From: Gammaproteobacteria bacterium
GTDB lineage: Bacteria; Pseudomonadota; Gammaproteobacteria; Natronospirales; DASSBR01
Direction: 5' to 3'
Length of the DNA: 64,000 nt
Assembly (NCBI GenBank): GCA_035690945.1
Contig: DASSJY010000018.1
Coordinates: 48,590-112,589, forward strand
Part shown: piece after piece, positions 3,057 to 29,328 of the stretch
Layout: the number at the start of each line of letters is the position of its first letter
Numbering within the stretch: the first letter of the stretch is position 1
The notes under the pieces: generated by a model
Told to the model about the DNA's origin: nothing
Seen by the model: only the letters and a program-made list of their open reading frames with translations
Database searches by the model: none
Translations under genes and position numbers: made by a program

Positions 3057-3065
3057 GCTGGAGCC

Positions 3066-13039: not shown

Positions 13040-14416
13040 CTACACAAAATCGACGCCCACCTGGAATAGCTTTTCGACCGCCGCGATGTGCTTGCGCTCA
13101 ATCACGAACAGGATTACGTGGTCGCCGTTTTCGATTACGATGTCGTCGTGCGCCATGAGCACCTCGTCGCCACGAACGATCGCGCTCATCGTCGCCCCCG
13201 GCGGCAGGTCGATCTCGTCGACCCGGCGGCCGACGACGCGCGACTTGCCGTTGCCGCCGTGCGCGACCGCCTCGATGGCCTCGGCCGCGCCGCCGCGCAG
13301 CGAGTGCACGTTAAGCACGTCGCCACGGCGGATGTAGGTCAAAAGCGCGCCGATCGTCACCTGTTGAGGCGACAGCGCGATGTCGATCGAGCCACTCTGC
13401 ACCAGATCGACGTACGCCGGCCGGTTGATCAGCGCGAGCACCTTGCGCGCGCCCAGTCGCTTGGCCAGCATCGCCGACAGGATGTTCGCTTCCTCGGCGT
13501 TGGTAACGCCGCAGAACACATCGACGTTTTCGATGCTCTCCTCGCGCAGCAATTCCTCGTCGGCAGCGTCGCCGTTGAGCACGATGGTATTGTCGAGCAG
13601 TTCGGACACCTTCCGCGCGCGGTCGCGATTGCGCTCGATCAGCTTGACGTTGTGATTGTCCTCGAGCGCATCGGCGAGGCGCACGCCAATATTGCCGGCA
13701 CCGGCGATAATCACGCGCCGGATCGGCTTGTCAAGCTTGCGCAACTCGCTGATTACGGTCCGGATGTCGCGCCGCGCGGCGATAAAAAAGACCTCGTCGT
13801 CCGCCTCGATCACCGTATCGCCAGTCGGAATAATCGGCTGGCCGCGGCGGTAAATCGCCGCCACGCGCGCCTCCACCTGCGGTACATGATCGCGGAGCGC
13901 ACGCAACTGCTTGCCGACCAAGGGCCCGCCATAGTACGCCTCCACCGCAACAAGGCGCACCTTGCCGTCGGCGAAATCCAGCACCTGCAGCGCGCCGGGG
14001 TAATTCATCAGCCGGCTGATGTAGTCGGTGACGAGCTGCTCTGGGCTGATCAGCCGGTCGATACCGAGCGCCCCCTGCTGGAATATTTCCCCGGCGGCGA
14101 GATATTCGCTCGCGCGGACCCGTGCGATCTTGGTTGGCGTATGAAACAACGCGTGGGCGATCTGGCAGGCGACGATGTTGACCTCGTCGCTGTCGGTGAC
14201 GGCGATGAGCATGTCGGCGTCATCGGCGCCGGCTTCGCGGAGGATATTCGGGAACGCCCCTGACCCATGCACGGTGCCGAGATCGAGCCGTTTTTCGAGG
14301 TCACCAAGCACTGCCTCGTTGTTGTCGACCACGGTGATGTCGTTGTCGGTCTCCGTGACCAGCTTGTGGGCCACGGTCGTCCCCACCTGGCCGGCACCGA
14401 GGATGATTATTTTCAT
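13040..14416 (-). CDS. trkA: Trk system K+ uptake protein TrkA (tandem RCK/NAD-binding)
   Basis: 'MKIIILGAGQVGTTVA' and a second 'VIIAGAGNIGVRLA' Rossmann motif. 458 aa, as for TrkA. Confidence 0.95.
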   Translation of the reverse strand: MKIIILGAGQVGTTVAHKLVTETDNDITVVDNNEAVLGDLEKRLDLGTVHGSGAFPNILREAGADDADMLIAVTDSDEVNIVACQIAHALFHTPTKIARVRASEYLAAGEIFQQGALGIDRLISPEQLVTDYISRLMNYPGALQVLDFADGKVRLVAVEAYYGGPLVGKQLRALRDHVPQVEARVAAIYRRGQPIIPTGDTVIEADDEVFFIAARRDIRTVISELRKLDKPIRRVIIAGAGNIGVRLADALEDNHNVKLIERNRDRARKVSELLDNTIVLNGDAADEELLREESIENVDVFCGVTNAEEANILSAMLAKRLGARKVLALINRPAYVDLVQSGSIDIALSPQQVTIGALLTYIRRGDVLNVHSLRGGAAEAIEAVAHGGNGKSRVVGRRVDEIDLPPGATMSAIVRGDEVLMAHDDIVIENGDHVILFVIERKHIAAVEKLFQVGVDFV

Positions 14417-14449: not shown

Positions 14450-16372
14450 CTAGATTCGGACCTGCAAGCCCATCTCGACTGTCTGATCCGACGGAATCTG
14501 ATAGTACGCGGTCGCCTTGACGGAATTTCGCACCATGAAGGCGAACAACTGGTCGCGCCAGGTCGGCATGCCCCCCTTCTTGCGGCCGACCAGCAGCGAC
14601 TGGCGGCCGATGTAGTAGGTGGCGTCGTTGACGTTGATATCGATACCCAACGCCCCGCACGCGGCCAGCTCGGACGGAATATTCGGCCCCTGCATGTAGC
14701 CGTAATGCAGGATCACGCGGTAAAAGCCCTGCGGGAAAAACTTGATTTCGATGCGCTCGTCCGCCGGCACCCGCGACGCGTTGCTGGTGAGCACCGTCAG
14801 CAGTATCACCTGCTCGTGCAGCACCTTGTTGCGCGCGATGTGGTGGCGTAATGCCGATGGCGTCGCGGTCAGTCTCCCGGTCAGGAATACCGCCGTGCCC
14901 GGCACGCGCTGCACTTTCGACTGCGCAAACTCGCCGATAAACGTTTCCAGCTTATCGGCACTTTTCGCGGTTTGCGCCTGCAACAGCGCGCCGCCACGCC
15001 GCCAGGTGGACATCAGCGTGAAAAAGATGATGCCGACGATCACCGGGAACCAGCCGCCGTCCGCCAGCTTGACCAGGTTGGACCCGAAGAAGCTCAGGTC
15101 AATGAACAGGAAGCCGACGAGAAATGCCACCGCCGCCGGCCAGCGCCAGCCGCCGCGTTCGCGGGCGACGTTGAACGCGAGAATCGTCGTCACCACCATG
15201 GTGCCGTTGACGGCGATGCCGTAGGCCGCGGCGAGGTTGCTCGAACTCTGGAAGCCCACGACCAGCCCGATTGCGGCGATCATCAGCACCCAATTGACCG
15301 CCGGTACATAAATCTGTCCGCGTGTCTCGGCGGACGTCTGCACGACCCGGAAACGCGGCATCTGGCCGAGCTGGATCGCTTGGCGGGTGAGCGAAAACGA
15401 GCCGCTGATAGTCGCCTGCGACGCGATCACGGTGGCAACCGTCGTCAGCACCACCAGCGGATACAGCGCCCAGCCGGGCGCCAGGTTGAAGAACGGCTGC
15501 ACCGCTTGGTGGGGGTGCGCGAGCAGCATCGCGCCCTGGCCGAAATAGTTGAGCAGCACTGCCGGCAGCACGAACCTGAACCAGGCGCGGCGGATCGGCC
15601 CGCGGCCGAAATGACCCATATCCGCGTACAGCGCCTCGCCGCCGGTCGTCACGAGGAAGATCGCGTACAACACCAGGAATGCCGCCCAGCCGGCATGGTG
15701 AAAGAACTCGAACGCGTACAGCGGGTTGATGGCCTTGAGCACTTGCGGTTCGTTGACGATGGCGCTTATCCCGAGGCCCGCAAGCACCACAAACCAGACC
15801 ACCATGATCGGGCCGAACACCGCGCCCACCTTGGCGGTGCCATGCTTCTGGAACGCGAACAGCAGCAGCAGGATGATGATCGTGAGCGGGATCACATAGG
15901 GCGCAAATGCCGGCGTGGCCACCTCCAGACCTTCGACGGCGCTGAGGATGGAAATTGCCGGGGTGATCATGATGCCGCCGTACAGGAGCGCGGCGCCGAA
16001 CAGGCCGGTCATGATCAGCAGCCAGCGCCGTCGGCGTTCGAGGCCCTTCCACGGCCGGAGCAAGCCGATCAGGGCGAAGATGCCGCCTTCGCCGCGGTTG
16101 TCCGCGCGCAGCACGAAGGTCATGTACTTGAGCGAGATGACCAGGATCAGCGTCCAGAAAATCAGCGACAGCACGCCGAGGACGTCAGTAGGGTTCACCG
16201 GCACCGGGTTCGCACCTTCGAAGCAGGCACGGAACGAATAAATCGGGCTCGTGCCAATGTCGCCATAAACGACGCCCAGGACGGCCAGGCCGGCCGCGAT
16301 ACGTTTGCGGCGATCGCCTTGCGCTGTGCCGGCGCGGCCCCGCAGCGCGATATCCTGCATCGATTTGCTCAT
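14450..16372 (-). CDS. kup: KUP/HAK/KT family potassium transporter
   Basis: 'LGVVYGDIGTSPIY' signature, 12 TM spans plus a cytoplasmic C-domain. 640 aa. Confidence 0.95.
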   Translation of the reverse strand: MSKSMQDIALRGRAGTAQGDRRKRIAAGLAVLGVVYGDIGTSPIYSFRACFEGANPVPVNPTDVLGVLSLIFWTLILVISLKYMTFVLRADNRGEGGIFALIGLLRPWKGLERRRRWLLIMTGLFGAALLYGGIMITPAISILSAVEGLEVATPAFAPYVIPLTIIILLLLFAFQKHGTAKVGAVFGPIMVVWFVVLAGLGISAIVNEPQVLKAINPLYAFEFFHHAGWAAFLVLYAIFLVTTGGEALYADMGHFGRGPIRRAWFRFVLPAVLLNYFGQGAMLLAHPHQAVQPFFNLAPGWALYPLVVLTTVATVIASQATISGSFSLTRQAIQLGQMPRFRVVQTSAETRGQIYVPAVNWVLMIAAIGLVVGFQSSSNLAAAYGIAVNGTMVVTTILAFNVARERGGWRWPAAVAFLVGFLFIDLSFFGSNLVKLADGGWFPVIVGIIFFTLMSTWRRGGALLQAQTAKSADKLETFIGEFAQSKVQRVPGTAVFLTGRLTATPSALRHHIARNKVLHEQVILLTVLTSNASRVPADERIEIKFFPQGFYRVILHYGYMQGPNIPSELAACGALGIDINVNDATYYIGRQSLLVGRKKGGMPTWRDQLFAFMVRNSVKATAYYQIPSDQTVEMGLQVRI

Positions 16373-16378
16373 CGGTGG

Positions 16379-17938
16379 TCAGACTTCATGCATGCGGATC
16401 CGCTTGTCGGGCTGCATGAGTGCGTTGCTGTCCTCAAGTTGCTTGAGCGCCGCCTGATAGCTGCTGAAATCGATCGCGCCGCTGAGCGCGTGCGCGCGCA
16501 CCAGCATGCGCACAAACGGCTCGGGGTCGTTCTGGCGCGTCAGCGCGCGCAGCGCGAGCCAGTAATCGCCGCAATAGACCGGCGGAATCAGGACGCGCAT
16601 CTGGTCGGCCGCGGACAGTTCAGCGTTCATCATCACCCGGGCGATGCGTCCGCTGCCGGAATCGAACGGGTGACACTCGCGGACCAGGAACAACATGAAT
16701 GCTGCACGGGTAAAGGGCTCCTGCAATTCCCGGTACAACTCGTAGCCGCGCAGCAGCGTCGGGCGAATGTGCTCGGCGGCGATGAAGCGGGTGATGTCGG
16801 TCTGCTCGCCCGGCTGGCGAAAGCGTCCAGCCGGCTGGTCGTCGCGCTCCGCGAACAGGACCTGGTGGCGGCGCGTCAGCAGCGTAAGGAAGTCGTCGCC
16901 GCTGACCGGCCGCCTACCGAGATCGTTACCGGTCTCGACCAGCCGGAACGTGTTGAGCAGCACCGCCGAGTCCATCGGCCGTTCCGCCAGCGGGCGTTCA
17001 TCAACAATGACCTCGTGGGCCGCGTCCACGTCGAATTCAAGACCGGCGAGGTAATTGGAAAAGTATGCCTCGAAAAATGCACGGTTGATGTGCCAGCCGG
17101 GCGCATGCTCGCCGCGCGGCCGCCCGATGTACTTGCGCTCGCGGAGCACCCGGAACAGGTTCTGAAACAGTTGCAGTCGCTCGCGATCGCAGCCGGCATC
17201 GGCGTCGCCCTTCGCAGCATCCGGTTCGGCCGTCGCGCGCCGCGCCAATGCGCCTACCTGTGACAGCGACGAGCGCACCTTCTTCGTGTGCTGCGTGACG
17301 CCGCGAAACCGCGTCCAGGCGGCCCTGACGCCGCTGCCGTCCGGCGCGCAGACGTTGTCCAGCAGGTCTTCCAGCAGCCGGAACTCTTCATGCCAGTCGA
17401 ACTGTGCGGCCAGCTCGCGGGCCCGGCTGCGCAGCCGCTCGCGATCGGCCGGATCGGTGATGCCCCGCAGGTACGCCTGAAGCGCATCGGCCGGCAGGGC
17501 GCGCGGTGCGTCCTTACGATGCCGCGACGCCGCCAGGTTCTCGAGAAATGCGCGTGCCGGCGAGGCGAGGTGCAGGTCGTGGGTAAAGGGCCGGTCGCCG
17601 GCCAGCGGACCTGGCGCGTTGATTAGCTTCAACGTGTGGCCCGGCAGGGAGACCTTGCGGGTGCCGTGATAGCTCAGGTAAACACAGCCGTCCGGCGACG
17701 GCGCCTGCTCGAATGCGGTGCGCCAGCCCACCACCGCGCCCGGCCAGAAGTGCCCCGCGATCGCAAAGATATTGCGGCCGACGATCGCCTCGGGCGGTTC
17801 ATCGAGATTGGAGGTATAGAGCTTCGGCCCCAGCTTGCGCAACTGGCCGCGGCGGACCAACTCCTCGACGGCATCCGGCGTGAAGCTCGTATCGGTATCG
17901 AAGACGATTTCCGGCAGGCTGCCAGCAGTTTTTTCCAT
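16379..17938 (-). CDS. Fic/DOC family protein with an N-terminal AbiEi-like winged-helix region and a degenerate Fic motif
   Basis: 'HPFDSGSGRIAR' at 16637-16672, compared with the canonical HPFx(D/E)GNGRxxR. N-terminal 'VEELVRRGQLRKLGPKLYT' resembles AbiEi-type wHTH. The start is uncertain (ATG 17938 or TTG 17992). Confidence 0.7.
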   Translation of the reverse strand: MEKTAGSLPEIVFDTDTSFTPDAVEELVRRGQLRKLGPKLYTSNLDEPPEAIVGRNIFAIAGHFWPGAVVGWRTAFEQAPSPDGCVYLSYHGTRKVSLPGHTLKLINAPGPLAGDRPFTHDLHLASPARAFLENLAASRHRKDAPRALPADALQAYLRGITDPADRERLRSRARELAAQFDWHEEFRLLEDLLDNVCAPDGSGVRAAWTRFRGVTQHTKKVRSSLSQVGALARRATAEPDAAKGDADAGCDRERLQLFQNLFRVLRERKYIGRPRGEHAPGWHINRAFFEAYFSNYLAGLEFDVDAAHEVIVDERPLAERPMDSAVLLNTFRLVETGNDLGRRPVSGDDFLTLLTRRHQVLFAERDDQPAGRFRQPGEQTDITRFIAAEHIRPTLLRGYELYRELQEPFTRAAFMLFLVRECHPFDSGSGRIARVMMNAELSAADQMRVLIPPVYCGDYWLALRALTRQNDPEPFVRMLVRAHALSGAIDFSSYQAALKQLEDSNALMQPDKRIRMHEV

Positions 17939-18052
17939 GAGGAAGCGCCTGTTCGCGGACGCGTAGTTTACGCTGCCGAATGTGCTGGACAAATCTTTAA
18001 AGCCACGCCCGTGACGTCGCCACCTGTCAGACGGATCGGAGGAGCCGCATGC

Positions 18053-18814
18053 TCAGTGATCCAGTCGCGGCTGCTCCGCCTCTTCGGGTGCGGTGTAGCT
18101 GACCAGGCGATAGCCCACACCGGGCTCGGTCTGAATGTAGCGCGGTTCGGTAGGATCGTCACCCAGCTTGTGTCGCAACCGCGCGACGATAACGCGCAGG
18201 TAATGGGTGTCTTCTTCGTGAGTCGGACCCCAGATTTCGCGCAGCAGATGTGTTTGCGTCACGACGCGGTCGCGATTCGCAAACAGCGACTTCAGGACCG
18301 CGAACTCCTTGCGTGTGAACCGTACCCCCTCGCCGGCCACCTCCACCTGTCGGTGAGCCATATCGATGCTCAGGTAACCGTCATTGTAAAGGCCGCCGCC
18401 CGAATCTTCGGGTACCACCACGCGAAGCAGGTTACGTACGCGGGCGAGGAACTCCTGCAATCCGAACGGTTTAGTGACATAGTCATTGGCGCCGGCATCG
18501 AGAGCGCGCACTTTCTCGTTTTCGTCGGCGCGCACCGAAAGGATAATTACCGGTACGCTGGACCAACTCCGAATTTCCCGGAGCACGTCCTTACCGTCCA
18601 CACCGCGCAGGCCGAGGTCCAATACGACGAGTTCGGGCGACCGCGTAGCCGCCAGCTTCATGCCTTCGTCGGCGGTGGCGGCCTCCATGACTTCGTATCC
18701 CTGGCTTCCCAAGCTGATGCGCAGGAAGCGTCGGATCTGGACTTCGTCGTCGATGACGAGAATCCGGGTCGGCGGCGCGCCGACTTCATCGTCGCTGATC
18801 GCACCGACCATCAA
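18053..18814 (-). CDS. kdpE: OmpR-family response regulator, KdpE-like
   Basis: 'ILVIDDEVQIRRFL', 'VVLDLGL', 'VIILSVRADENEKVRALDAGANDYVTKPFG' and a C-terminal 'YIQTEPGVGYRL' wHTH are closest to the KdpE pattern. Confidence 0.8.
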   Translation of the reverse strand: MMVGAISDDEVGAPPTRILVIDDEVQIRRFLRISLGSQGYEVMEAATADEGMKLAATRSPELVVLDLGLRGVDGKDVLREIRSWSSVPVIILSVRADENEKVRALDAGANDYVTKPFGLQEFLARVRNLLRVVVPEDSGGGLYNDGYLSIDMAHRQVEVAGEGVRFTRKEFAVLKSLFANRDRVVTQTHLLREIWGPTHEEDTHYLRVIVARLRHKLGDDPTEPRYIQTEPGVGYRLVSYTAPEEAEQPRLDH

Positions 18815-18933
18815 CCGAGTCTGACCCTGTTGGCCGCATTCCCGCCGGCAGTGTGCCGCGGCAGGAACTGTCGTACCCGATTCAGTAGGCGATCAAGGGG
18901 CTTCACTTCAGACGGCATGGCCCTTGCCGCCCC

Positions 18934-20517
18934 TCATCTACTCGCTCTGTGCGGATCGCCTTCGCCGCCGAGTAATGCACCGGCCGCGCTGCCTGCGCGA
19001 CCTTTCATCTGCTCGGCAAGCAGTGAATTGCCGAATTCGTCGAGCGTCTGCGTGATGCTGCCGGAGAATGCCGCAAGCCCGGTGTTGATGAACAAGAGCG
19101 GGATAGCGATGCTGAGGCCCAGTACGGTGGCAATCATGGCGTGACCGATACCGGTGGCCATCACCGTCGGATCGCCGCCGCCGGAGGCCACGATCGCATA
19201 GAAAGTGATGATCATGCCGGTCACGGTGCCGATCAGCCCAAGGAGTGGACCTGCCGCCACCGCCAGCCGGAGGAACCACTGGAAACGTTCCAGCTTCGGC
19301 ACTTCCTGCTGGATCGCTTCGTGCAGGTGCAACGCGGCTACGTCGGCGCTTTCCGCCGCCTTCTTGTCGCTGAGATAGGTTGCCAGCAAGCGGCCGAGCG
19401 GGTTATCCAGTTTTGGCTCGGATGGATTTTTGAGCTGTGCGCGGACGCCACGGCGCGTCTTCAGCAAATAAAGAACCTGGTACAACGCCAGCAGTACGCC
19501 GATGATACCGACCGCAATGATGATGTAGCCCACCATCTGACCCAGCTGTATCCGCTCGAGCCAACTCGGGCGCTGCAGGTACCGGTGAAACAGTCCGCCT
19601 CGGGTTACATCGACGACGGCGGGAACATAGCCGGGGCCCGGCGCGGTTTGCGCCAAATCGTGGGCGATGTCCTGGAAATTGCCTGGCATAGAGCCATCAA
19701 GTTCCGTTAAGGATTTTACAGTCGAAAGGTAGCCGAGATATTCATCGTCGTGGACGACCGTGAACGGCCCGACCCGCACGACATCGGTAGGCACCGCGGT
19801 TCCGGTCGGCTGGCCGTTATCGAGCTGCAGCACATCGGTCCGGTAGCGCACTACCTTGCCTTCACCGACCGTCTCTCTCAGGATTTCAAACCACATCCGC
19901 TCCAGATTCTTGATCGAAGGCAGCGACTTCGCCTGGGCCATCCGCAACAGGAACTTCGAGCGCTCTTCCTCTCCCGGCTTCGGTTGAAACTGGGTGCTCA
20001 ACAACGAGTCGCGCAATTCCTTGGCCGCCTTTGATGAAGCTACCCGGACGACGCCGAACAGCTCACCGAGATCCCCTTGGCGCTGCGTCAGCAATTTGCT
20101 GAGCGAGTCGATTTGCGCGTTGTTGTCCTTCAATTGTTTCTGGAGTGCGTCGGCGCGGGCGTTGGCGGCATCCCGACGCGCAACAGCCTTGCGCACCAGT
20201 TCTTGCTCATGCGCGAGCTTCTGCTTGGCGTCGTGCAGGCGTTGCGCCGCGGTGGCCGATTGCTTCTTGCGAATCTGACGCACTTCATCGGATAGCTCCG
20301 CCAGCGTCTTGGCTCGCTGGCGCGCGGCGGCGGCAGCGGCGGCCTTCGCCTTGGCCGCTTCGGACGCGGAATTTTGCTGTGCCCAAGCCGTGCCCGAGAG
20401 CCCTACGGCAATCGAGGCTATGCTCGCCACCAGCAGGGCGCGCGCGCCGCGGCGCAGAGTGACCTTGCCATTTCGATTCAAATTTTTGCACGTCATAGCG
20501 GTGCCGTCTCTCTCCAC
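18934..20517 (-). CDS. Large MotA/TolQ/ExbB-family protein with a signal peptide and ~300-aa periplasmic coiled-coil N-domain (TtpC-like, copy 2)
   Basis: Signal peptide '...SIAVGLSGTAWA', A/K/Q-rich coiled coil, then 'GPLLGLIGTVTGMIITF...MATGIGHAMIATVLGLSIAIPLLF' (ExbB channel motif). GTG 20517 lies 1 nt after the exbD stop (alternative ATG 20496). Confidence 0.8.
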   Translation of the reverse strand: MERDGTAMTCKNLNRNGKVTLRRGARALLVASIASIAVGLSGTAWAQQNSASEAAKAKAAAAAAARQRAKTLAELSDEVRQIRKKQSATAAQRLHDAKQKLAHEQELVRKAVARRDAANARADALQKQLKDNNAQIDSLSKLLTQRQGDLGELFGVVRVASSKAAKELRDSLLSTQFQPKPGEEERSKFLLRMAQAKSLPSIKNLERMWFEILRETVGEGKVVRYRTDVLQLDNGQPTGTAVPTDVVRVGPFTVVHDDEYLGYLSTVKSLTELDGSMPGNFQDIAHDLAQTAPGPGYVPAVVDVTRGGLFHRYLQRPSWLERIQLGQMVGYIIIAVGIIGVLLALYQVLYLLKTRRGVRAQLKNPSEPKLDNPLGRLLATYLSDKKAAESADVAALHLHEAIQQEVPKLERFQWFLRLAVAAGPLLGLIGTVTGMIITFYAIVASGGGDPTVMATGIGHAMIATVLGLSIAIPLLFINTGLAAFSGSITQTLDEFGNSLLAEQMKGRAGSAAGALLGGEGDPHRASR

Positions 20518-20518
20518 G

Positions 20519-20938
20519 TCAGTCGCTGCCGCCAGGCTGACTGGCCGCTATCGCGATCTGGTCTATGCCGCCGGCGTGCACCTTATTCATGACTTTCGCC
20601 ACCACCCCGGCCTGCGAGTCCTTGTCCGCGACAATGACCACGGTGTCGTGCGGGCGCTCGATATGCAGTCGCTGAACCATCGCCGGCAGGTCGTCCAGGC
20701 CCACCTGATGCCCGCCCATCCAGATGTCTCCGTTGGGCTCGATGGCAATCAGCAGCTTGCCGGATTTCATTTCCTGGGCGGTCGTGGCATTCGGCCTGAA
20801 AACCGTGACGCCGGGCCGGTTGATGAACGACGTCGTGATAATGAAAAAAATCAACAGGTTGATGGTGAAGTCCAGCATCGGGGCGAGGTCGATGCCATGG
20901 TGCTCCGATTCAGTCTTTATCCGGCGTTGTCGTATCAT
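20519..20938 (-). CDS. exbD: ExbD/TolR family protein (copy 2)
   Basis: 'HGIDLAPMLDFTINLLIFFIIT' N-terminal TM motif, 139 aa. Its start overlaps the upstream exbD stop by 1 nt (TGATG). Confidence 0.85.
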   Translation of the reverse strand: MIRQRRIKTESEHHGIDLAPMLDFTINLLIFFIITTSFINRPGVTVFRPNATTAQEMKSGKLLIAIEPNGDIWMGGHQVGLDDLPAMVQRLHIERPHDTVVIVADKDSQAGVVAKVMNKVHAGGIDQIAIAASQPGGSD

Positions 20939-21351
20939 CAGGTTCCGCCCGCTGTCGCGAAGGTTACGTTGTAAACGCCCGCCATATGCGCCTGGTCCAC
21001 CACCTGTACCAGCACCCCGGTGGGGGCGCGTTGATCCGCGACGATCAATACGGTGGCATTAGGGGTGGCGGCAAGCGAGTGTTCAATATCGGCGCGCACC
21101 GCTTGCACATCGACGACGCGGCTGCCGATCGATATCTTGCCATCGGCACCGATCTGGACCTGGACCACCTTTTGCTTCGTCTGCTTCTGCTGCTGCTGCT
21201 GCGAGGACGGCCGATTGACCACCACCCCGTACTGCTGGATGAACACCGCCGTGATGATGAAAAAGATGAGCAAATTGATACAGAAGTCCAGCATCGGCGC
21301 AAGGTCGATACCATGCGTCGCCACTTCGGCATCTGATTGTCGCCGACGCAT
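20938..21351 (-). CDS. exbD: ExbD/TolR family protein (copy 1, with a poly-Gln linker)
   Basis: Start set at ATG 21351 (MRRRQSDAEVATHGIDLAPMLDFCINLLIFFIIT). The 257-aa ORF-track version runs through exbB in another frame and was rejected. Confidence 0.85.
   Translation of the reverse strand: MRRRQSDAEVATHGIDLAPMLDFCINLLIFFIITAVFIQQYGVVVNRPSSQQQQQKQTKQKVVQVQIGADGKISIGSRVVDVQAVRADIEHSLAATPNATVLIVADQRAPTGVLVQVVDQAHMAGVYNVTFATAGGT
21181..21201. repeat. In-frame CTG/CAG trinucleotide run inside exbD copy 1
   Basis: CTGCTT(CTG)5 on the plus strand, which is (CAG)5 on the coding strand and encodes QQQQQ in the linker 'SSQQQQQKQTKQK'. Confidence 0.9.
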
Positions 21352-21359
21352 ACGCACGG

Positions 21360-21884
21360 CTATACGCTCAACTCGTCCGCCAGCTGCTCGGTTTCCCGAG
21401 TCGCCCGCGAGCGGAAATAGTAAACGGGGTAGAGACCACTGACCGCGACGGCGAGTCCGGTCATGGTGTTGATCATCGCGGCCGACACGCCGGCGGCCAT
21501 GGCACGGGCGTCGGCGGTGCCGAGTATGGACATGGAACTGAACACCTGCAGCATACCGGTGACCGTGCCGACCAGTCCGATGAGTGGCGCCATCGCCACC
21601 AGCACCGAGAGTACCGGGTGGCCCTTCGTCATGGAGACGTTCAGCCGGGAAATCAGGCCTTCGCGGATTTGCCGCGCGCACCAGGACGTGTGATCCTCGC
21701 GGGCATCCCATTCAGCGCGCACTGCTGCCTTTTCCTTTGGCAGCACCCGCCAGAAATACCAGGTGCGCTCAGCGGTGAGGGTCCATAGCAGGACCCCCGT
21801 CGCGAAGATCCACAAGACGAGCGTTCCGCCCTGACCGGCGAGGTACGCAATGCTGTCGAGAAGAGGGATATGGCTGAACATCAC
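21360..21884 (-). CDS. exbB: ExbB/TolQ-type proton channel (small form)
   Basis: 174 aa, 3 TM spans. 'MAPLIGLVGTVTGMLQVF' and 'AAGVSAAMINTMTGLAVAV' are MotA/TolQ/ExbB motifs. Confidence 0.85.
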   Translation of the reverse strand: MMFSHIPLLDSIAYLAGQGGTLVLWIFATGVLLWTLTAERTWYFWRVLPKEKAAVRAEWDAREDHTSWCARQIREGLISRLNVSMTKGHPVLSVLVAMAPLIGLVGTVTGMLQVFSSMSILGTADARAMAAGVSAAMINTMTGLAVAVSGLYPVYYFRSRATRETEQLADELSV

Positions 21885-23338
21885 GCTGTCCCTCCGCGCC
21901 GCTCCTTCGCCTTTCCCGCACCGCCTTTGCTCTGTTGCTGCTCAATCCTTTCAGCAAGCATGCCGCTGCTCTGCTTGTCGAGAATCTGCACGATGCTGTC
22001 CGACAGGGACTTCAGCAGCGCGTTGCCGAACAACAAGGGGATGGCGACACCGAGGCCGAGCACCGTCGCAATCATCGCGTGGCCAATACCGGTGGCCATC
22101 AGCCGCGGATCGGCGGAGCCGGTGTCAGTGATGGTCTGGAACGTCTCAATCATGCCGACCACGGTGCCGATCAGGCCGAGCAGCGGTCCGGAGGCGACGG
22201 CGAGACGCAGGTACGACTGGAATCGCTCGAGTCTCGGCTCCTCGCGCAGCACCTGTTCAGTGATGCGCAACTCCGCGATATCGGCTTCTTCCTCGATGCG
22301 GTCCGGATCGCCCTTGAACGCCAGCAACACGCGGCCCAACGGATTGTCATTCCTGGGATTGTTCAGATCCTTGAGCTGCTTGTTGACGGCCATCCTCGCG
22401 GCGATCAGCCTGAAGATCTGGAAGAAGAACAGGATCGCGCCAATCACGCCGACGGCGATGATGACGTATCCCACCCCTTGGCCGAGCTGGATTCGCTGCA
22501 GCCACGTCGGGCGGTTGATGTACAACCCGATCAGCGCTCCGGTGCCGCTCGAATCGATGACCGCACGAGCGTAGCCCTGATGAGTGTCCTGAAAATCAGC
22601 CAGGATGCTCCGGAAATTGCCCGGCAGTTCGCGCGGCAGCACGCTCAGAGTGTTGAGATCCGGCAGATATTGAAGGAAGCGACCCTCGGACGTCGCCGTG
22701 AACGGCCCGACCCGGGTAACCTTGCTGACAACGCTCTTGTTGTTGGCCTGCACCACCGGCGCCTGGTAACTCACCACCTGCCCCTGGGCGGTCATTTCAT
22801 GTTGAATGACGTACCACAGCCGCTGGAGATCATCCAGCGTCGGCGTGCCGTTTGAGTTGGCAAGGCCCTGCAGAAACGCAAGACGACCCGTCTTGCCCTG
22901 CGGCGGCGAGAACTGGGTATTGGTCAGCGCATTCTGAAGGGTGGTGGCGAGATTATCCGCGTCTTTCTGAGCGGTGCTGAACACGCCCGACAGGTCTGCT
23001 GCCTGGGCTTGCGCATTGATCTGATCTTCCATCTTCCCGATCTGCATTTCGTTCGCCGAATACTGATCGGAGGCTTGCGACGCAGCCGCCTTGGCCTGGT
23101 TAAGCGCGGCCTCCGCCTGCTTCATCATGGCCTGTTGCTGGTCCGGCGACGCCGCGGCGAATTGCGCGCGGGCCTGGTTCATTTGTGCCTGCTGCTGCTG
23201 GCTTACCGATTGAACCTGGTTGAGCAACTGTTCGAGTGAATTTGCATTTGCAGTCGCCGGCGCAGCCTCGGCGAACGTGGAAGCAGCGACGAAAGCAGCG
23301 AGTACGATGCCGGTAGCGGCGGCCAACGATTTCCTCAC
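21881..23338 (-). CDS. Large MotA/TolQ/ExbB-family protein with a periplasmic coiled-coil N-domain (TtpC-like, copy 1)
   Basis: Signal peptide 'AAFVAASTFAEA', Q/A-rich coiled coil, C-terminal 'GPLLGLIGTVVGMIETF...MATGIGHAMIATVLGLGVAIPLLF'. 4-nt overlaps with both neighbours. Confidence 0.8.
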   Translation of the reverse strand: MRKSLAAATGIVLAAFVAASTFAEAAPATANANSLEQLLNQVQSVSQQQQAQMNQARAQFAAASPDQQQAMMKQAEAALNQAKAAASQASDQYSANEMQIGKMEDQINAQAQAADLSGVFSTAQKDADNLATTLQNALTNTQFSPPQGKTGRLAFLQGLANSNGTPTLDDLQRLWYVIQHEMTAQGQVVSYQAPVVQANNKSVVSKVTRVGPFTATSEGRFLQYLPDLNTLSVLPRELPGNFRSILADFQDTHQGYARAVIDSSGTGALIGLYINRPTWLQRIQLGQGVGYVIIAVGVIGAILFFFQIFRLIAARMAVNKQLKDLNNPRNDNPLGRVLLAFKGDPDRIEEEADIAELRITEQVLREEPRLERFQSYLRLAVASGPLLGLIGTVVGMIETFQTITDTGSADPRLMATGIGHAMIATVLGLGVAIPLLFGNALLKSLSDSIVQILDKQSSGMLAERIEQQQSKGGAGKAKERRGGTA

Positions 23339-24195
23339 GACTGCGCCCCCTGTTGCGCCGCTTGCGACGCCGGCTGCGGCGCGGGCACGGGCACGGTCAA
23401 CAACTGGGGCGTGCCCTTCTGGTTAGCCATATTCACGGCATTCTGGAAGGCATCGGCGTAGTCGTTATCGACCACCCATTTGTGTTCGTTCTTGTTCCAG
23501 TAGCCCGTTTCGGAGCCGTCGAGGGTCTGGTACATCAGGGATACGCGGCCGATGTGGACAAATTTGACTGCCCGGGCGTTCTGGCCGGTGCCCAGCGTGC
23601 CGTCGTAGGAACTAAGAGTCCGTCCGTAATCGAGTTCGGCCAGATAGTCCTGCAGGATGACGCGGTACTTCTCGGAGATCGACACGTCGGGGCGCGTCAT
23701 CAGGTCCTCGAGATCCTGTATCCGCTTCTCGCGCTCCTTGGGCAGGAAAGGCAGGTCGAGCTTCACGAAGTTCGCCAGCGTCTGGACCATGTTGGCCATC
23801 AGCGGCTGGATGCCGCGCTTGGTCACATCGATCTGCTGCATTTGCCGCTTGATCGACGCGATCCGCTCCTGCTGCGCTTGCACCAGGCCGCTCAGCGTCT
23901 TGCTGTAGTGTTCGTAGCTTCTGGCTGCCGCCAGCGCTTCCGCATACTTGGTGGCAGCGTCCTGCGTCTTGTCAGTGAGATCGTTGATCTGCTGCTGAGA
24001 CTTCGCGGCGGCTTTGTTGGCTGCAGCCATCGATGCCATTACGTCGTCGAGGTTTTTGTTGTTGGCAGACATGGCCGGGAAGGCCGCGGCTACCGCGAAC
24101 ATAGCCACTACTGCTACGCAGATCGACTTGGGGGCCGATCTCCGGCGGGCAATCGTCTTGCTCGCATTGGGGTTGCTGGAACGGAAATTCCTCAT
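23335..24195 (-). CDS. DUF3450-like periplasmic coiled-coil protein (TtpB-like first gene of TonB2-type clusters)
   Basis: 'LDLPFLPKEREKRIQDLEDLMTRPDVSISEKYRVILQDYLAELDYGRT' is the DUF3450 core pattern. It has a signal peptide, and AGGAGG lies 9 nt upstream of the ATG. Confidence 0.75.
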   Translation of the reverse strand: MRNFRSSNPNASKTIARRRSAPKSICVAVVAMFAVAAAFPAMSANNKNLDDVMASMAAANKAAAKSQQQINDLTDKTQDAATKYAEALAAARSYEHYSKTLSGLVQAQQERIASIKRQMQQIDVTKRGIQPLMANMVQTLANFVKLDLPFLPKEREKRIQDLEDLMTRPDVSISEKYRVILQDYLAELDYGRTLSSYDGTLGTGQNARAVKFVHIGRVSLMYQTLDGSETGYWNKNEHKWVVDNDYADAFQNAVNMANQKGTPQLLTVPVPAPQPASQAAQQGAQS

Positions 24196-24403
24196 GGCAA
24201 TTCATGCCTCCTGTCGCACGCCTTCGGCATCAACGGCGTTGGCTCATTTCTGTCTGGATATTCCCGGCTGGCGTCCGTGACATACGCCGGAACTTGACTT
24301 GGTTAATCGCTCGGATTCGAGCGAAAAGCCATTCTGTAGGCGCGGGGTGTATAAAAACTATGGCAAAAGTTGGACGGATGCGTAAAAAATTCGTAAAAAA
24401 ACA

Positions 24404-26470
24404 TTACCCAACATGGGCGCGCTCCTCCCTGGACTCCTGCGGCAAGGCGATCAACGGCAACCGAATAGCGATCACGGCACCGCGGCTATTCGGCCCCGGC
24501 AGAGCCTCAATACTACCTCCGTGCGCAGCTATTATGCCTTGACAGATTGCCAGGCCCAACCCGCTGCCGTGCGGCCCGGTATCGCCGTCGCCACCGGTGA
24601 AAAACATGTCGAAGACCCGATCGCGATCGGCTTCCGGTATGCCCGCACCCTGATCGGCCACCGTGATCAGCAACTGCCCGCCTTCCTGTCGGGCGGCGAT
24701 GCGGACCTCGCCGCCCGACGGCGAAAAGCGTGCGGCATTTTCGATCACATTCACCAGCGCCTGCTCAATGAGCGCGGAGTTCACGTAAAGCAGGGGCAGG
24801 TCGGCAGGGATATCGCGCACGATGTGCACTTCCGTCAGCATGTCGCGGGCGCGCTGCAGTGCTGAAGCCACGACGTCCGCCAGCGTCACCCAGTCACGCG
24901 GCAGTTTGAGCGTGGTGCCGTCGCCAAGCCGGGTCATGTCAAGGAGATTTTCAATATATCGGTTGAGCCGGAGGCCTTCGCTCAGCACCGCATCGAGCAT
25001 CTCGTACTTGTCCGTTTCCGAGAGCCGGTCGCCCAGATCGCGCAAGGTGCTCGCCGAGCCGATCATCGACGCGAGCGGCGTGCGCAGGTCATGCGACACC
25101 GAGGACAGCAGCGCCGAGCGCAGCCGTTCGGTCTCTTCGGCCACCCGCGCGCGCTCGAGATTCGAGGTCAGTTCCGTGCGCGCGAGGGTCAGCGTCACCT
25201 GGTTGGCCAGCGCATCCAGCAGCAGCAGTTGCTCGTTGCGCGGCCTGATCGGCAGTTCGCCAAACTTGACGCCCAGCACGCCATAACGGCTCTCTTCGAG
25301 GGTCAGCGGCACGAACCGCCAGCCGACGCCCGGCAGCGTTTCGCCGAGGTAGCCACTCGGCCGGTCGTGTTCGAACGCCCAGTTTGCCGCCGCCTGCAAT
25401 CTGTCACTCAGGGCGACAGGTTCCGGTGCGGAGGCAGAGAGTTCGATGCCGCCCCGTCCGATTGTCGTCAACAGGCACGTCGGCACGCGCTCGATTTTTG
25501 CGATCGCCTCGACCGCCGCGCGACGCACGGCGGCCGAGTCGGGCGCCTCGGCGAGTTGCTTGCTGAACGCAAGCAGGGCCTGGCTCTGGGCGTTCGTTGC
25601 GCGCAGTGCCGCAACCTGGACACGCAGACGATGCGCCAGATTGCTGCCGATAATCGCGGCCGCCAGGAACAGCAGCACGGCGATGAACTCGTTGGCGGGA
25701 TAATTCGCGAGTCCGGATATCGGTCCGATAAACAGGAAGTTGTACGCCAGCGAAGTCAGCACTGCGGCGACCAGCGCGGGCGCCAGCGAGGTACGTACCG
25801 CTACGATCAACACACCCACGAGCAGGACCAGCGAAAGGTTGGACAAATCCAACGGCAGCGTGAACGCCAACATCTCCGAAATCGCGGTGCAAATTGCAAC
25901 GACTATCAGGGCGTAGGAATAGTGACGCCAGGGCGATCCGCGCAGTTCGTCGAGCCACGCTCCCCAGCGTCCCCGCAGCGTCGCGGCCTCGGCCGGCGCC
26001 GCACTGACGATGGTAATCTCGAAATCCCCGTGATCCCGCAACAGCCGCTGCGTGAACGTCTGGCGGAAGAACCCCGCGAGAGGCCGTCTGCGGGTGCGGC
26101 CGATGACAATCGTGGTGGCGTTGTGGTCGCGCGCATAGGCGACGATCTCGGCGTCGACGGATCGTCCGCGCAGAACAATTGCGTCGCCGCCAAGCCGCTC
26201 CACGAGCCGAAAAGCGCGTTCGATGCGCTCCCGCACCGCGGCGCCGGGACGACCGGTTTCGACATGGACCACCGTCCATGGCGCACGCCGTTGATCGGCG
26301 ATCCGTTTCCCGGCCCGCACGACCCGCTCCGAGTTGCGCCCGCCGTCGATGGCGACCACTACCCGCTTGCGGGCCGCGGTTTCCGGCTTCTCACGAACCG
26401 CGCCGCCGGCCGCGCGCGGCCGACGTTCACCATAGTGCCGGACTACCGGCTGCACGTCGGGCGATCGCAT
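24404..26470 (-). CDS. kdpD: KdpD-like sensor histidine kinase lacking the N-terminal KdpD P-loop domain (Usp-TM-GAF-like-HisKA-HATPase)
   Basis: It starts directly with a Usp-like region ('VVVAIDGGRNSERVV...TTIVIGRTRRR'), then four TM spans, then the H-box 'LLSSVSHDLRTPLASMIGS' and G-boxes 'DQGAGIP'/'GSGLGLAI'. 688 aa, versus about 890 aa for E. coli KdpD. Confidence 0.75.
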   Translation of the reverse strand: MRSPDVQPVVRHYGERRPRAAGGAVREKPETAARKRVVVAIDGGRNSERVVRAGKRIADQRRAPWTVVHVETGRPGAAVRERIERAFRLVERLGGDAIVLRGRSVDAEIVAYARDHNATTIVIGRTRRRPLAGFFRQTFTQRLLRDHGDFEITIVSAAPAEAATLRGRWGAWLDELRGSPWRHYSYALIVVAICTAISEMLAFTLPLDLSNLSLVLLVGVLIVAVRTSLAPALVAAVLTSLAYNFLFIGPISGLANYPANEFIAVLLFLAAAIIGSNLAHRLRVQVAALRATNAQSQALLAFSKQLAEAPDSAAVRRAAVEAIAKIERVPTCLLTTIGRGGIELSASAPEPVALSDRLQAAANWAFEHDRPSGYLGETLPGVGWRFVPLTLEESRYGVLGVKFGELPIRPRNEQLLLLDALANQVTLTLARTELTSNLERARVAEETERLRSALLSSVSHDLRTPLASMIGSASTLRDLGDRLSETDKYEMLDAVLSEGLRLNRYIENLLDMTRLGDGTTLKLPRDWVTLADVVASALQRARDMLTEVHIVRDIPADLPLLYVNSALIEQALVNVIENAARFSPSGGEVRIAARQEGGQLLITVADQGAGIPEADRDRVFDMFFTGGDGDTGPHGSGLGLAICQGIIAAHGGSIEALPGPNSRGAVIAIRLPLIALPQESREERAHVG

Positions 26471-26611
26471 GGGCGGGAGGCCGTTGCCGGCAGAAGATGC
26501 TGAGCGTCGGCGCGCCGACCTTCAAGACACACGCTGAGAACCATCCATAGAAGAGTTCATCCCGAATGATAACTCCGAAACGGGATCATGGAGCGCCTGC
26601 ACATCACCGTT

Positions 26612-28765
26612 TCAGCAGACTTGCAGGTTCGCGTAACCGAGTACGAGCCACTTGGTGCCGACGTCGGCGAAGTTGACTTCAACCCGGGCTTGCGTACCGC
26701 TCCCCTCACAATTCAGCACCACGCCTTCGCCGAACTTGGGATGCAGCACGCGCTGCCCCAGGTTGAGGCCGCCCGGCAGCGGCTCGTTCGGGCTCGCACC
26801 GCGGTACAGCGGCCGCGATACCTGCACATTGGGGCGCACTTCGTCCACCTCGTCGGCGGGCAGTTCGCGCAGGAAGCGCGACGGCATCGCGTACGTTTCG
26901 CGCCCGTGCAGGCGGCGCTTCTCCGCGTAACTTAAATAGAGTGTCTGCATCGCACGCGTCATGCCGACGTAGGCGAGACGCCGCTCTTCCTCGATGCCGG
27001 CCGGATCCTCGATGGAACGCTGGTGCGGAAACAGGCCCTCTTCGAGGCCGGCGATGAATACCAGAGGAAATTCGAGGCCCTTGGCCGAGTGCAACGTCAT
27101 CAGTTGCACGGAATCCTCGCCGGCGTCGGCCTGGTTGTCGCCGGCTTCGAGCGCCGCCTGCGTCAGGAATGCCGTCAGCGGCGGCAGGTCCACTTCCGGA
27201 TCGGGCTCGAACAGGCGCGCGGCATTGACCAGTTCCTCGAGGTTCTCGACGCGCGCCTCGCCGCGCTCGCCTTTTTCCTGCCGGTAATGCTCAAGCAAGC
27301 CGCTGGTCTCGATGACGTGAGCGACCTGCTCGGCGAGCGGCAGCGTCGCGGTCTCCGCTGCCAGCCGGTCGACCAGATCAAGGAAGCCGGTCAGCGCGTT
27401 GCCGGCGCGCCCGCCCAACGCATCGTCCTCCACGAGGTGCCGTGAGGCGCTCCACAGCGAAACCCGCCGGTCGCGCGCCTCGGCACGCAACCGTTCAAGC
27501 GTGCGTGCGCCGATACCCCGCGCCGGCTGGTTTACCGCGCGCTCGAACGACGGGTCGTCGTCGCAGTTGGCTATCAGGCGCAGATACGCGAGCGCGTCCT
27601 TGATTTCGGCGCGTTCGAAGAAGCGCACACCGCCGTAGACACGGTATGGCACGCCCGCAACGATCAGCGCTTCTTCAAAGACGCGCGACTGCGCATTCGA
27701 GCGATACAGCACCGCCGCCTCGCGGCGCAGTCCGCCTTCCGCGGCCCAGCGCTGGACGCGCTCGACGACGAACGCCGCCTCGTCCTGTTCGTTGAACGCA
27801 GCATATATATGTACCGGCTCGCCGGCCGCGCCGGCGGTCCACAGATTCTTGCCGAGCCGGTCGCGGTTGTTGGCGATCAGCGTGTTGGCCGCGGTCAGGA
27901 TACGGCCGGTGGAGCGGTAATTCTGTTCGAGACGAATCGTCGTCAGACCTGGGAAATCCTTCTGCAACCGGTGCAGGTTCTCGATCTTCGCGCCGCGCCA
28001 GCCGTAGATCGATTGATCGTCGTCGCCGACGATGAACGGCTGTCCGGTCGTGCCGGCGAGCAGCCGCACCCACGCGTACTGGATCGCATTGGTGTCCTGG
28101 AACTCGTCGACGAGGATGTGCCGGAAACGCTCGCGGTAGTGCGCGAGCACCTCAGGGTTGTCGCGCCACAACTCGTGTGCGCGCAGCAGCAGTTCGGCGA
28201 AATCGACGCAGCCGGAGCGCTCGCAGGTCTCCTCGTAGGCGCGATAGACGCGTACCAGGTGGCGCCGGTAGGGATCGTCGCCTTCGGCAAGATGCGCCGC
28301 ACGCAGCCCCTCGTCCTTGCGCGCGTTGATGTACCACTGCATCTGCCGCGCGGGCCAGCGTGCCTCATCGATATCCATTTGCTTGAGGATGCGCTTGATG
28401 ATGCGCAACTGATCTTCGGAGTCGATGATCTGAAAATTCTGCGGCAGGCCGACATCGCGCCAGTGCGCGCGCAGCAACCGGTGGGCGATGCCGTGAAACG
28501 TGCCGACCCACAAATGACCCGTCGGCATGCCGAGCAGCGTCTCGATGCGCGACCGCATCTCGCCAGCCGCCTTGTTGGTGAACGTGACGGCGAGAATGCC
28601 GTAGGGCGACACGCCCTGCACCCGGATCAACCACGCGATGCGGTGCACCAGCACCCGCGTCTTGCCGCTGCCGGCGCCGGCCAGCACCAGCAGCGGGCCC
28701 GGGTCCGCGGTGACGGCTTTACGCTGGGCGTCGTTGAGGGGCTGAAGGATAGACGTGACATCCAT
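26612..28765 (-). CDS. uvrD: DNA helicase II (UvrD)
   Basis: Start set at ATG 28765 (MDVTSILQPLNDAQRKAV). 'VLAGAGSGKT', 'ILVDEFQDTN' and 'VTFTNKAAGEM' are SF1 helicase motifs. About 717 aa. Confidence 0.95.
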   Translation of the reverse strand: MDVTSILQPLNDAQRKAVTADPGPLLVLAGAGSGKTRVLVHRIAWLIRVQGVSPYGILAVTFTNKAAGEMRSRIETLLGMPTGHLWVGTFHGIAHRLLRAHWRDVGLPQNFQIIDSEDQLRIIKRILKQMDIDEARWPARQMQWYINARKDEGLRAAHLAEGDDPYRRHLVRVYRAYEETCERSGCVDFAELLLRAHELWRDNPEVLAHYRERFRHILVDEFQDTNAIQYAWVRLLAGTTGQPFIVGDDDQSIYGWRGAKIENLHRLQKDFPGLTTIRLEQNYRSTGRILTAANTLIANNRDRLGKNLWTAGAAGEPVHIYAAFNEQDEAAFVVERVQRWAAEGGLRREAAVLYRSNAQSRVFEEALIVAGVPYRVYGGVRFFERAEIKDALAYLRLIANCDDDPSFERAVNQPARGIGARTLERLRAEARDRRVSLWSASRHLVEDDALGGRAGNALTGFLDLVDRLAAETATLPLAEQVAHVIETSGLLEHYRQEKGERGEARVENLEELVNAARLFEPDPEVDLPPLTAFLTQAALEAGDNQADAGEDSVQLMTLHSAKGLEFPLVFIAGLEEGLFPHQRSIEDPAGIEEERRLAYVGMTRAMQTLYLSYAEKRRLHGRETYAMPSRFLRELPADEVDEVRPNVQVSRPLYRGASPNEPLPGGLNLGQRVLHPKFGEGVVLNCEGSGTQARVEVNFADVGTKWLVLGYANLQVC

Positions 28766-28839
28766 CCGACCGATTTTATCAGACTGCGCCACGCCCCCTG
28801 GTGGCGCGTAGAATAGACTCAAACAACACGGGCAACGGG

Positions 28840-29328
28840 ATGACCAATCATCTGAGCTTCTTCGGCAACTGGGCCGGCCAGATCGACCTGCTGATCCAGA
28901 TCGTCTGCGCGATGGTGCTGGGCGCGGCACTGGGGCTGGAACGTGAGCGCGCGCACAAGCCGGCCGGCTTTCGCACGCTGGTGCTGATCGCCGGCAGCAC
29001 GACGCTGCTGGTCGGACTGGCCCGCGTAATGACCGCCGATTTCGGCGCGATCTTCCCGACCGGCCTCGCCCGCGCCGATCCGGTGCGCGTCATCCAGTCG
29101 ATCGTCACCGCTGTCGGCTTTCTCGGCGCCGGCACCATCTTCCGCCGCAAGGATGACGACATGGTCGAGGGCCTGACCACCGCCGCGACCGTGCTGCTCG
29201 CGGCGGCTGTCGGTATCGCCTGCGCGCTCAACCAGTTCATCGTCGCCATTGGAGTGACGGTTATCGCGTTGATCGTGCTGCGCGCGCTGAGCGTGGTCGA
29301 GCGCGCGCGGCGGCACGCCAGGAAATAG
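28840..29328 (+). CDS. MgtC/SapB family membrane protein
   Basis: 'GAALGLERERAHKPAGFRTLVLIAGSTTLL' is the MgtC-family signature. Start at ATG 28840 (an upstream GTG at 28801 is possible). Confidence 0.8.
   Translation: MTNHLSFFGNWAGQIDLLIQIVCAMVLGAALGLERERAHKPAGFRTLVLIAGSTTLLVGLARVMTADFGAIFPTGLARADPVRVIQSIVTAVGFLGAGTIFRRKDDDMVEGLTTAATVLLAAAVGIACALNQFIVAIGVTVIALIVLRALSVVERARRHARK

Follow-up and report, generated by a model that had tools for sequence, protein, structure and literature searches.

A truncated KdpD, a KdpE and a kdp-type promoter at a TonB-less motor operon of a gammaproteobacterium

The kinase, the regulator and the operon between them

The window analysed here, a 64-kb stretch (64,000 nucleotides) of contig DASSJY010000018.1 from the gammaproteobacterial assembly GCA_035690945.1, carries genes for a KdpD-like histidine kinase and a KdpE-like response regulator that are separated by a Ton-like motor operon. 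Window genes from 28930 down to 11573 all lie on the minus strand, starting with a uvrD helicase gene (26612..28930; Pfam UvrD-helicase, UvrD_C and PcrA_UvrD_tudor) and continuing with the kinase gene (24404..26470), six motor genes, the regulator gene (18053..18811), fic, kup, trkA and trkH. An initial annotation of the window had placed uvrD directly upstream of the kinase gene and kdpE on the same strand six genes downstream, and both placements hold, with the regulator start corrected from 18814 to the ATG at 18811; the resulting protein of 252 aa is an exact match to NCBI protein HET7307775.1. In NCBI, kinase and regulator have accession numbers 7 apart, consistent with six genes between them. 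The kdpFABC pump genes had been described as not present, and tblastn with KdpA, KdpB, KdpC and the KdpD N-domain gave no match within the window, nor did any other kinase or regulator match anywhere in it. A search for KdpB homologues returned a saturated list at 68–77% identity, and among the matches listed no entry was attributable to these metagenome-assembled genomes.

The kinase (688 aa) has Pfam matches to Usp (34–145), DUF4118 (184–290, four transmembrane (TM) helices), HisKA (451–518) and HATPase_c (566–673), all above their cut-offs, and a weak match to GAF_3 at 344–429 (20.3 bits against a cut-off of 27). The order of modules first described (a direct start with a Usp-like module, then TM, GAF-like and HisKA/HATPase modules) agrees with these matches, with the qualifications that a 35-aa leader comes first and that GAF_3 is below cut-off. 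The reported lack of the KdpD N-domain was likewise borne out, as PF02702, the N-terminal KdpD domain with the Walker A motif, has no Pfam match in the kinase and the alignment to the NCBIfam KdpD model NF007793 (895 positions) begins at position 249 and ends at 887. The score of 333 bits against a cut-off of 1123 falls short because of divergence from the enterobacterial model and the 248 missing positions. The closest homologues are full-length KdpDs of ~905 aa at 70–75% identity, some annotated as Nitrococcus sp., and identity to full-length KdpDs that include those of two classical operons (comparison loci L005 and L008) is 64–75%, with all of them in the same tree group. Entry 6lgq, a KdpD, is the best PDB match, and the phospho-accepting histidine motif SHDLRTPL is retained together with a DHp (dimerization and phosphotransfer) helix like that of classical KdpD. 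Judged by Pfam, NCBIfam and orthology, the kinase is a KdpD orthologue without the N-terminal KdpD/P-loop domain.

In the window clade and in the related loci L004, L040 and L041, the truncated kinases all have exactly 35 residues before RVVVAIDG. They have a common leader, MxSPDVQPV[IV]R..RRP, and this leader can still be recognised where the full-length KdpD of L001 begins (MRPSNAQPTKRSHGARR). It follows that the N-domain was lost through an internal deletion that was in frame and spared the start codon. The deletion in all these kinases was probably a single event. In E. coli KdpD, the N-domain (residues 1–230) is a serine kinase that phosphorylates KdpB at Ser162 (PMC11018627), and the window kinase is without it while the core (Usp, four TM helices, a weakly matched GAF-like module, DHp and catalytic and ATP-binding (CA) domains) is alike in the two proteins. 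Engineered E. coli KdpDs that have lost the same domain, such as the R12-D228 truncation of Jung, Heermann and Altendorf, still signal and respond to K+ limitation, with a deregulated phosphatase and poor repression at high K+, as summarised in PMC2714519. Since the N-domain is a KdpB serine kinase and the truncated E. coli protein still signals, loss of the domain fits its function; the window truncation differs from the engineered ones in being natural, conserved and under purifying selection. Silberberg et al. (PMC11018627) surveyed only species with an annotated Kdp pump and found the KdpD domain kept in almost all KdpD versions, and they described the protein as modular, with serine kinase and histidine kinase separable or lost independently, as here. 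The window holds the reciprocal form, a KdpD with its histidine kinase but without its serine kinase, at a locus that has no pump.

The regulator consists of REC and Trans_reg_C domains (Pfam), and its top NCBIfam match is KdpE at 231 bits, under the equivalog cut-off of 325. It is 74–78% identical to KdpEs that adjoin kdpD in relatives, including those of the classical loci L005 and L008, in which kdpA, kdpB and kdpC are present. Among PDB entries the overall best match is 6lgq_D, which carries just the label 'DNA-binding response regulator' and agrees in its aligned residues with 4kny; the top named matches are 4kny and 4kfc, both E. coli KdpE. Three residues that contact DNA in E. coli KdpE, R193, R200 and T215 (PMC3264566), all have conserved equivalents in the regulator, and the two OmpR-type proteins are the same in this respect. 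By these matches the regulator is a true KdpE. Its receiver helix alpha-1 (QIRRFLRISL) and the DHp helix 1 of the kinase are essentially as in adjacent KdpD/KdpE pairs, and the two proteins look like a cognate pair, between which phosphotransfer would be expected. The ratio of nonsynonymous to synonymous substitutions (dN/dS) between the window and two species-level relatives (dS 0.27–0.43) is 0.09 for the kinase and 0.01–0.06 for the regulator, and therefore both genes are maintained by selection.

The six genes between kinase and regulator encode a DUF3450 (TtpB-like) protein (23335..24195; PF11932, 250 bits), a long TtpC-like MotA/ExbB protein of 485 aa (21881..23338; PF01618), an ExbB-like protein of 174 aa (21360..21884; PF01618), two ExbD-like proteins of 138 aa (20938..21354) and 139 aa (20519..20938; both PF02472), and a second TtpC-like MotA/ExbB protein of 527 aa (18934..20517; PF01618). 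The mechanical open reading frame (ORF) 20938–21711 was overlong for the first ExbD, and its start was corrected to 21354, with orthologues being 137–138 aa. The two TtpC-like proteins are paralogues (46% identical), and the two ExbDs are 37% identical. The order DUF3450, TtpC, ExbB, ExbD is that of the Vibrio TonB2 clusters, TtpB-TtpC-ExbB-ExbD-TonB2-TtpD (PMC6957404), but where these have TonB and a TPR protein the window has a second ExbD and a second TtpC-like protein, and neither TonB nor a TPR protein (TtpD) was found in the motor cluster of the window or of any relative compared below. In two ordinary clusters (L020 and L026), TonB_C and TPR proteins stand at the position of the second TtpC-like gene. 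Metagenomes scanned with the 527-aa motor protein gave solely ordinary DUF3450-TtpC-ExbB-ExbD(-TonB-TPR) clusters and no further KdpDE-linked locus, and none of the 29 scanned had a KdpE box, kinase, regulator or kup, whereas the motor cluster of the window is preceded by such a box. Among the three species-level genomes, dN/dS for kinase, regulator and motor genes is 0.01–0.14.

The promoter in front of the motor operon

The gap between kinase and motor operon (24196–24403, 208 bp) was described initially as richer in A/T, and its GC content is indeed 0.50 against 0.63 for the window, falling to 0.41 in the 90 nt beside the kinase. The two repeats noted there, 11 bp apart, were confirmed as CGTAAAAAA at 24381–24389 and 24392–24400 on the plus strand, and on the coding strand they read TTTACG-AATTT-TTTACG (24397–24381). 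TTTACG-N5-TTTACG has this sole exact match in 64 kb and occurs in 0 of 100 shuffled sequences, and with a position weight matrix (PWM) the site scores 36, the maximum in shuffled sequences being 16.6. The E. coli KdpE half-sites are TTTATA-N5-TTTACA, 6-bp AT-rich direct repeats 5 bp apart (PMC3264566). A kdp-type operator is defined as two AT-rich hexamers with a 5-bp spacer upstream of a core promoter, and the repeat at 24381..24397 has this form, with two hexamers in an 11-bp period. Its end lies 44 nt from a -10-like hexamer, CAGAAT (24331..24336), a distance close to the 42 nt between the end of TTTACA and TACCCT in E. coli, where we take TACCCT to be the -10 of kdpFABC; the two operators are alike in having two TTTAxx hexamers 11 bp apart, 42–44 nt upstream of the -10.

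The same motif was found before kdp, trk or kdpD genes in L005, L008, L009, L010 and L043 and before the motor operon in L001, L004, L006, L007 and L042. In Marinobacter subterrani (L043) it stands 74 bp upstream of kdpF, in L008 upstream of trkH-kdpFABCDE, in the Nitrococcus-like locus L005 upstream of kdpD (a match independent of the construction of the PWM), and in Marinobacter and Thiocystis directly upstream of truncated kdpD genes. Eight promoters align nearly without gaps and have in common three hexamers and a -10 hexamer whose second position is always A and whose sixth is always T. A second conserved element, TTTTGCCATAGTTTTTATAC (24349..24368), overlaps the -35 position and has an invariant core in four lineages. 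It reads CTTTTGCCATAGTTTTTATACACCCCGCGCC in the window, closely resembles the E. coli kdpFABC promoter (CTTTTGCCATTTTTATAC...ACCCCGCCCG) and occurs also in the Marinobacter kdpF and Nitrococcus promoters; it is either a second KdpE site or the core of the kdp promoter. The E. coli kdpFABC promoter and the window further share CTTTTGCCAT..TTTTATAC..ACCCCGC, and apart from the TTTACG hexamers the region 24300–24410 includes the element TTTTGCCAT.

Conservation was compared upstream of DUF3450 in six loci from four diverged lineages, namely three loci with the gene order of the window (the window, L006 and L007) and L001, L042 and L004. The half-sites are invariant and the spacers variable in all six, with proteins that are only ~70% identical, and within the three loci of the window's order the 208-bp gap is 95% identical, compared with a dS of 0.23–0.43. 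A stem-loop, UCGCUCG-AAUC-CGAGCGA (24307..24324), is conserved at the predicted 5′ end of the mRNA and has a compensatory C-G for U-A in L004; the transcription start is predicted near 24324. Taken on this sequence evidence, the window repeat is a KdpE-type operator within a kdp-type promoter, and KdpE would be expected to bind it. It lies ~185 bp upstream of the start codon of the motor operon, and the genes behind it are DUF3450, the MotA/ExbB and ExbD types and then kdpE-fic-kup-trkAH, with kdpFABC not among them. The E. coli promoter, in contrast, leads into kdpFABC, with the kinase gene at the operon end, whereas the window has its kinase gene upstream of the promoter.

A reading of the T-run behind the kinase gene as nothing but a terminator tail was rejected, as the repeats are kept in L004 without a kinase gene upstream. 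At 24193–24226 a ribosome-binding-site block, CC.AAGGCGTGCG..AGGAG.CATGAA...CCATGA, is invariant in the four diverged lineages, and the 5′ untranslated region (UTR) of the motor operon folds somewhat better than shuffled sequences (z = -1.8), with no Rfam match. An Rfam search of 13000–29500 at E<=1 gave two small-RNA matches at chance level and no known riboswitch or leader in the gaps. The 141-bp gap between uvrD and the kinase gene (26471..26611) has a conserved motif, GTTATCAT, which is kept in the loci of the window's order and in L001, and the PWM scan found no KdpE box in it; the kinase gene probably has its own promoter in this gap. The uvrD gene itself is a conserved upstream neighbour, in the equivalent position in L001, L004, L006 and L007.

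Gene orders in relatives

Three gene orders were found among relatives. Type A (L004, L040 and L041) reads uvrD-hyp-[box]-motors-kdpD(truncated)-kdpE-fic-kup-trkA, type B (L001–L003 and L042) reads uvrD-kdpD(full)-kdpE-[box]-motors-(second kdpE)-fic-kup, and type C (the window, L006 and L007) reads uvrD-kdpD(truncated)-[box]-motors-kdpE-fic-kup-trkA-trkH. The box and promoter precede the motor operon in all three. The synteny comparison proposed with the initial annotation, intact versus split kdpDE, thus gave an intact pair in types A and B and a split one in type C, with box-motors-fic-kup fixed throughout. In type A the orthologous kinase and regulator genes overlap, and the statement that kdpDE usually follow kdpFABC and are adjacent or overlapping is true of the nearest classical relatives too. 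As read from these orders, the separation of kinase and regulator is a reshuffling of regulatory genes around a fixed box-motor-fic-kup backbone. Type A has the classical layout box-X-kdpD-kdpE with the motors in the place of kdpFABC, suggesting that the pump genes were exchanged while their promoter stayed in place, and the comparison suggests that type C arose later, when the kinase gene was relocated beside uvrD. The gap before kdpE in the window can be aligned with the one that precedes the second kdpE in L001. No remnant of a deleted kdpE was found between the kinase stop and the box, which are 6 nt apart, and the C-terminal tails of the kinases are not alignable.

Several smaller features of these loci touch on the box. 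In L004, uvrD is followed by two weaker box-like sites (scores 19 and 18; 2643–2764) and then by a hypothetical gene of 262 aa that occupies the kdpD position of types B and C. In L042, a box-like TTTGTAACGCTGCTTTTACGTT and a TTTACG-TAAAT-TTTGTA repeat (479–500) lie upstream of the full-length kdpD, which suggests that kdpDE is autoregulated in this type B relative. In L008, a 70-aa ORF (2865–3077) is found between the KdpE box and trkH-kdpFABCDE. In the Nitrococcus-like contig of L005 (1–6120) the pump genes run kdpA-kdpC-kdpB. Small ORFs and a PhdYeFM antitoxin/PIN toxin-antitoxin pair stand between kdpB and kdpD, a separate KdpE box precedes the kdpD segment and a second PhdYeFM/PIN pair lies downstream of kdpE.

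Truncated KdpDs were also found elsewhere. Marinobacter sp. SS13-12 (L010) has an N-truncated kdpD with kdpE directly behind a box and beside trkH, and in M. subterrani the homologous place reads trkA-trkH-kdpFABC-kdpD(full)-kdpE; therefore one deletion appears to have taken the pump genes and the N-domain together. On comparison of L010 9685–10001 with L043 1990–9004, trkA-trkH-kdpFABC and the 5′ third of kdpD are gone in SS13-12 and the upstream box is fused to the truncated kdpD, in what appears to be a single deletion. Thiocystis violacea has a comparable truncated pair beside a TrkA_N gene. Like the window, both have a kinase that starts at Usp, a box directly upstream, trkH or trkA as a neighbour and no kdpFABC at the locus, but these truncations are independent, with unrelated leaders, and the pair is adjacent and without a motor operon.

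A regulatory model and its alternatives

The kinase retains the core that would be expected to respond to K+ (Usp, four TM helices, the weakly matched GAF-like module and DHp/CA domains). Under K+ limitation it would phosphorylate KdpE, and KdpE~P would then bind TTTACG-N5-TTTACG at 24381–24397, and perhaps site 2 also, to activate the kdp-type promoter with its -10 at 24331–24336. The TonB-less motor operon would be transcribed from that promoter, starting near 24324, and read-through could carry transcription into kdpE, fic, kup, trkA and trkH, giving positive feedback on kdpE and a greater capacity for K+ uptake. We consider it fairly probable that a cognate KdpD/KdpE pair lost its usual kdpFABC target at this locus and acquired the motor operon as a new one. 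The initial annotation had offered recruitment of the two-component system to the motor operon and/or fic-kup as one of two readings, and this one is supported by the kdp-type promoter, its conservation in four lineages and the gaps without a terminator-like site, the regulation itself being presumed.

How far such a regulon would extend depends on the genes behind the motors. From DUF3450 to trkH the gaps are 0–122 bp with all genes on one strand, and no intrinsic-terminator-like site was found in the intergenic gaps between the motor operon and kdpE-fic-kup-trkA-trkH. The gap before kdpE, first given as 119 bp, is present and becomes 122 bp (18812..18933) with the corrected start; GC is 0.655 for 18815–18933, and the gap has neither a box nor a terminator-like hairpin, with its RNA folding no better than shuffles (z = 0.09). 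Read-through into kdpE-fic-kup-trkA-trkH is plausible because the gaps are short and without a terminator-like site, and there is a parallel in E. coli, where kdpFABC transcripts read through into kdpDE, described as induction of kdpED (PMC5934670). It is nevertheless conceivable, though we think it unlikely, that the box controls the motor operon alone and that kdpE, fic, kup, trkA and trkH are on their own promoters without K+ regulation. The 122-bp gap has conserved blocks, a further gap of 60 bp precedes fic, and kup and trk are constitutive in E. coli (PMC5934670), all of which would suit separate promoters. On the other side are the lack of a terminator-like hairpin in gaps whose RNA folds like shuffles, the position of kdpE-fic-kup(-trkA) directly after the motors or kdpD in all arrangements, and the KdpE boxes before trk genes in L008, L009, L010 and L043.

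The downstream genes themselves are a Fic-domain protein of 537 aa (16379..17992), the potassium transporter gene kup (14450..16372; PF02705 and PF22776, with TIGR00794 exceeding its cut-off), trkA (13040..14416; two TrkA_N and two TrkA_C domains) and trkH (11573..13021; PF02386). The fic gene is kept between kdpE and kup in all three arrangements, and the Fic protein may belong to the same regulon. Its active-site motif is degenerate (HPFDSGSGRIAR), the canonical Fic motif being HPFx[D/E]GNGRxxR.

The other reading in the initial annotation was that the Ton-like operon inserted into an ancestral kdpDE pair, in which case the pair would regulate something else and the embedding would be incidental. 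This would account for a six-gene operon standing exactly between kinase and regulator in the window and its two close relatives, and kdpD and kdpE are adjacent or overlapping in classical loci. Insertion does not fit, however, because box-motors-fic-kup stays the same and the regulatory genes are the ones that shift or are duplicated, with the kinase gene changing position on a backbone fixed in relatives. The operon has its own kdp-type promoter, whose box is kept in L004 where the kinase is not upstream, the intact pair stands on either side of the operon in types A and B, and the uvrD and fic-kup flanks are constant. Type A (box-motors-kdpD-kdpE) looks nearest to the ancestral order, judged against the classical box-kdpFABC-kdpD-kdpE, and we regard insertion as improbable.

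Still less credible is that the locus is a decaying remnant, in which, once kdpFABC was lost, truncated kinase, regulator and old kdp promoter survive as relics that regulate nothing. The N-domain is deleted, the pump genes are not nearby and the similar truncation in SS13-12 looks like a plain deletion of pump genes, yet the frames are intact, dN/dS is 0.01–0.10 across the three species-level genomes, the kinase has its catalytic histidine and its ATP-binding (CA) domain, synonymous sites have diverged more than the promoter and the box is kept in four lineages with proteins only ~70% identical. That kinase and regulator are not partners, each being paired with a protein encoded elsewhere in the genome, is very hard to credit too, for although the genes are not adjacent and the search for others covered 64 kb, their interface helices equal those of the relatives' adjacent pairs, the window has no second kinase or regulator and the orthologous genes overlap in type A.

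A number of points weigh against the exchange of kdpFABC for the motor operon as the target of this pair. What the sequences show directly is the domain make-up and orthology of the two proteins, the operator with its conservation, the three arrangements of genes and the action of purifying selection; phosphotransfer, binding by KdpE, dependence on K+, the position of the start and read-through are inferred. The search for pump genes covered the 64-kb window, and kdpFABC may be present elsewhere in the genome. The box stands ~185 bp from the start codon, compared with 66–102 bp in classical kdp promoters, and therefore a 5′ UTR of ~130 nt is implied. A literature search found no paper linking KdpE to Ton systems (TonB/ExbB) and none on a KdpE regulon containing trkH or kup; a search on natural kdpDE without kdpFABC found no relevant paper, and kdpFABC is the sole KdpE target in E. 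coli (PMC5934670). In the type B loci L001 and L042 the KdpD of this neighbourhood is still full-length, so the association does not require loss of the N-domain, and this cautions against tying N-domain loss strictly to pump loss. The order of rearrangements is uncertain as well: the neighbour-joining kinase tree does not resolve it (support of 15–34%), the two KdpEs of L001 group weakly (48%), and the regulator tree places types A and B against C with 100% support. The shared 35-aa leader, which favours A with C, conflicts with the regulator tree.

What is new at this locus is a KdpD naturally reduced to its histidine kinase, along with a kdp-type promoter that would serve a Ton-like motor and Kup/Trk genes and not a Kdp pump. 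A broader proposal, which we hold only tentatively and think rather doubtful, is that in this uncultured lineage the target of KdpDE was exchanged outright, such that the ancestral kdpFABC promoter drives a TonB-less motor together with kdpE, Fic, Kup and TrkAH, and that the motor is an unrecognised envelope machine induced by K+ limitation. If so, the motor might energise outer-membrane K+ scavenging or adapt the envelope without an ATP-driven pump, there would be a K+-responsive regulon without Kdp, and induction by K+ limitation would be a functional clue for the TonB-less ExbB/ExbD/TtpC motor. Few two-component systems are as widespread or as well studied as KdpDE, and the locus would be a natural case in which sensor, regulator and promoter were kept and the regulated genes replaced. 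It also bears on the part that the KdpD N-domain plays in KdpB phosphorylation, since a domain with that role is predicted to be lost along with the pump, and its natural loss would be independent evolutionary support for that function. With the same parts in three gene orders, whether two genes are adjacent says little about their partnership in this lineage.

Away from the locus, the stretch 43001–46000 of the window has a GC of 0.54–0.56 against 0.63 elsewhere and includes parts of two large ORFs (42181–44103 on the plus strand and 44343–46238 on the minus strand); it may be acquired DNA.

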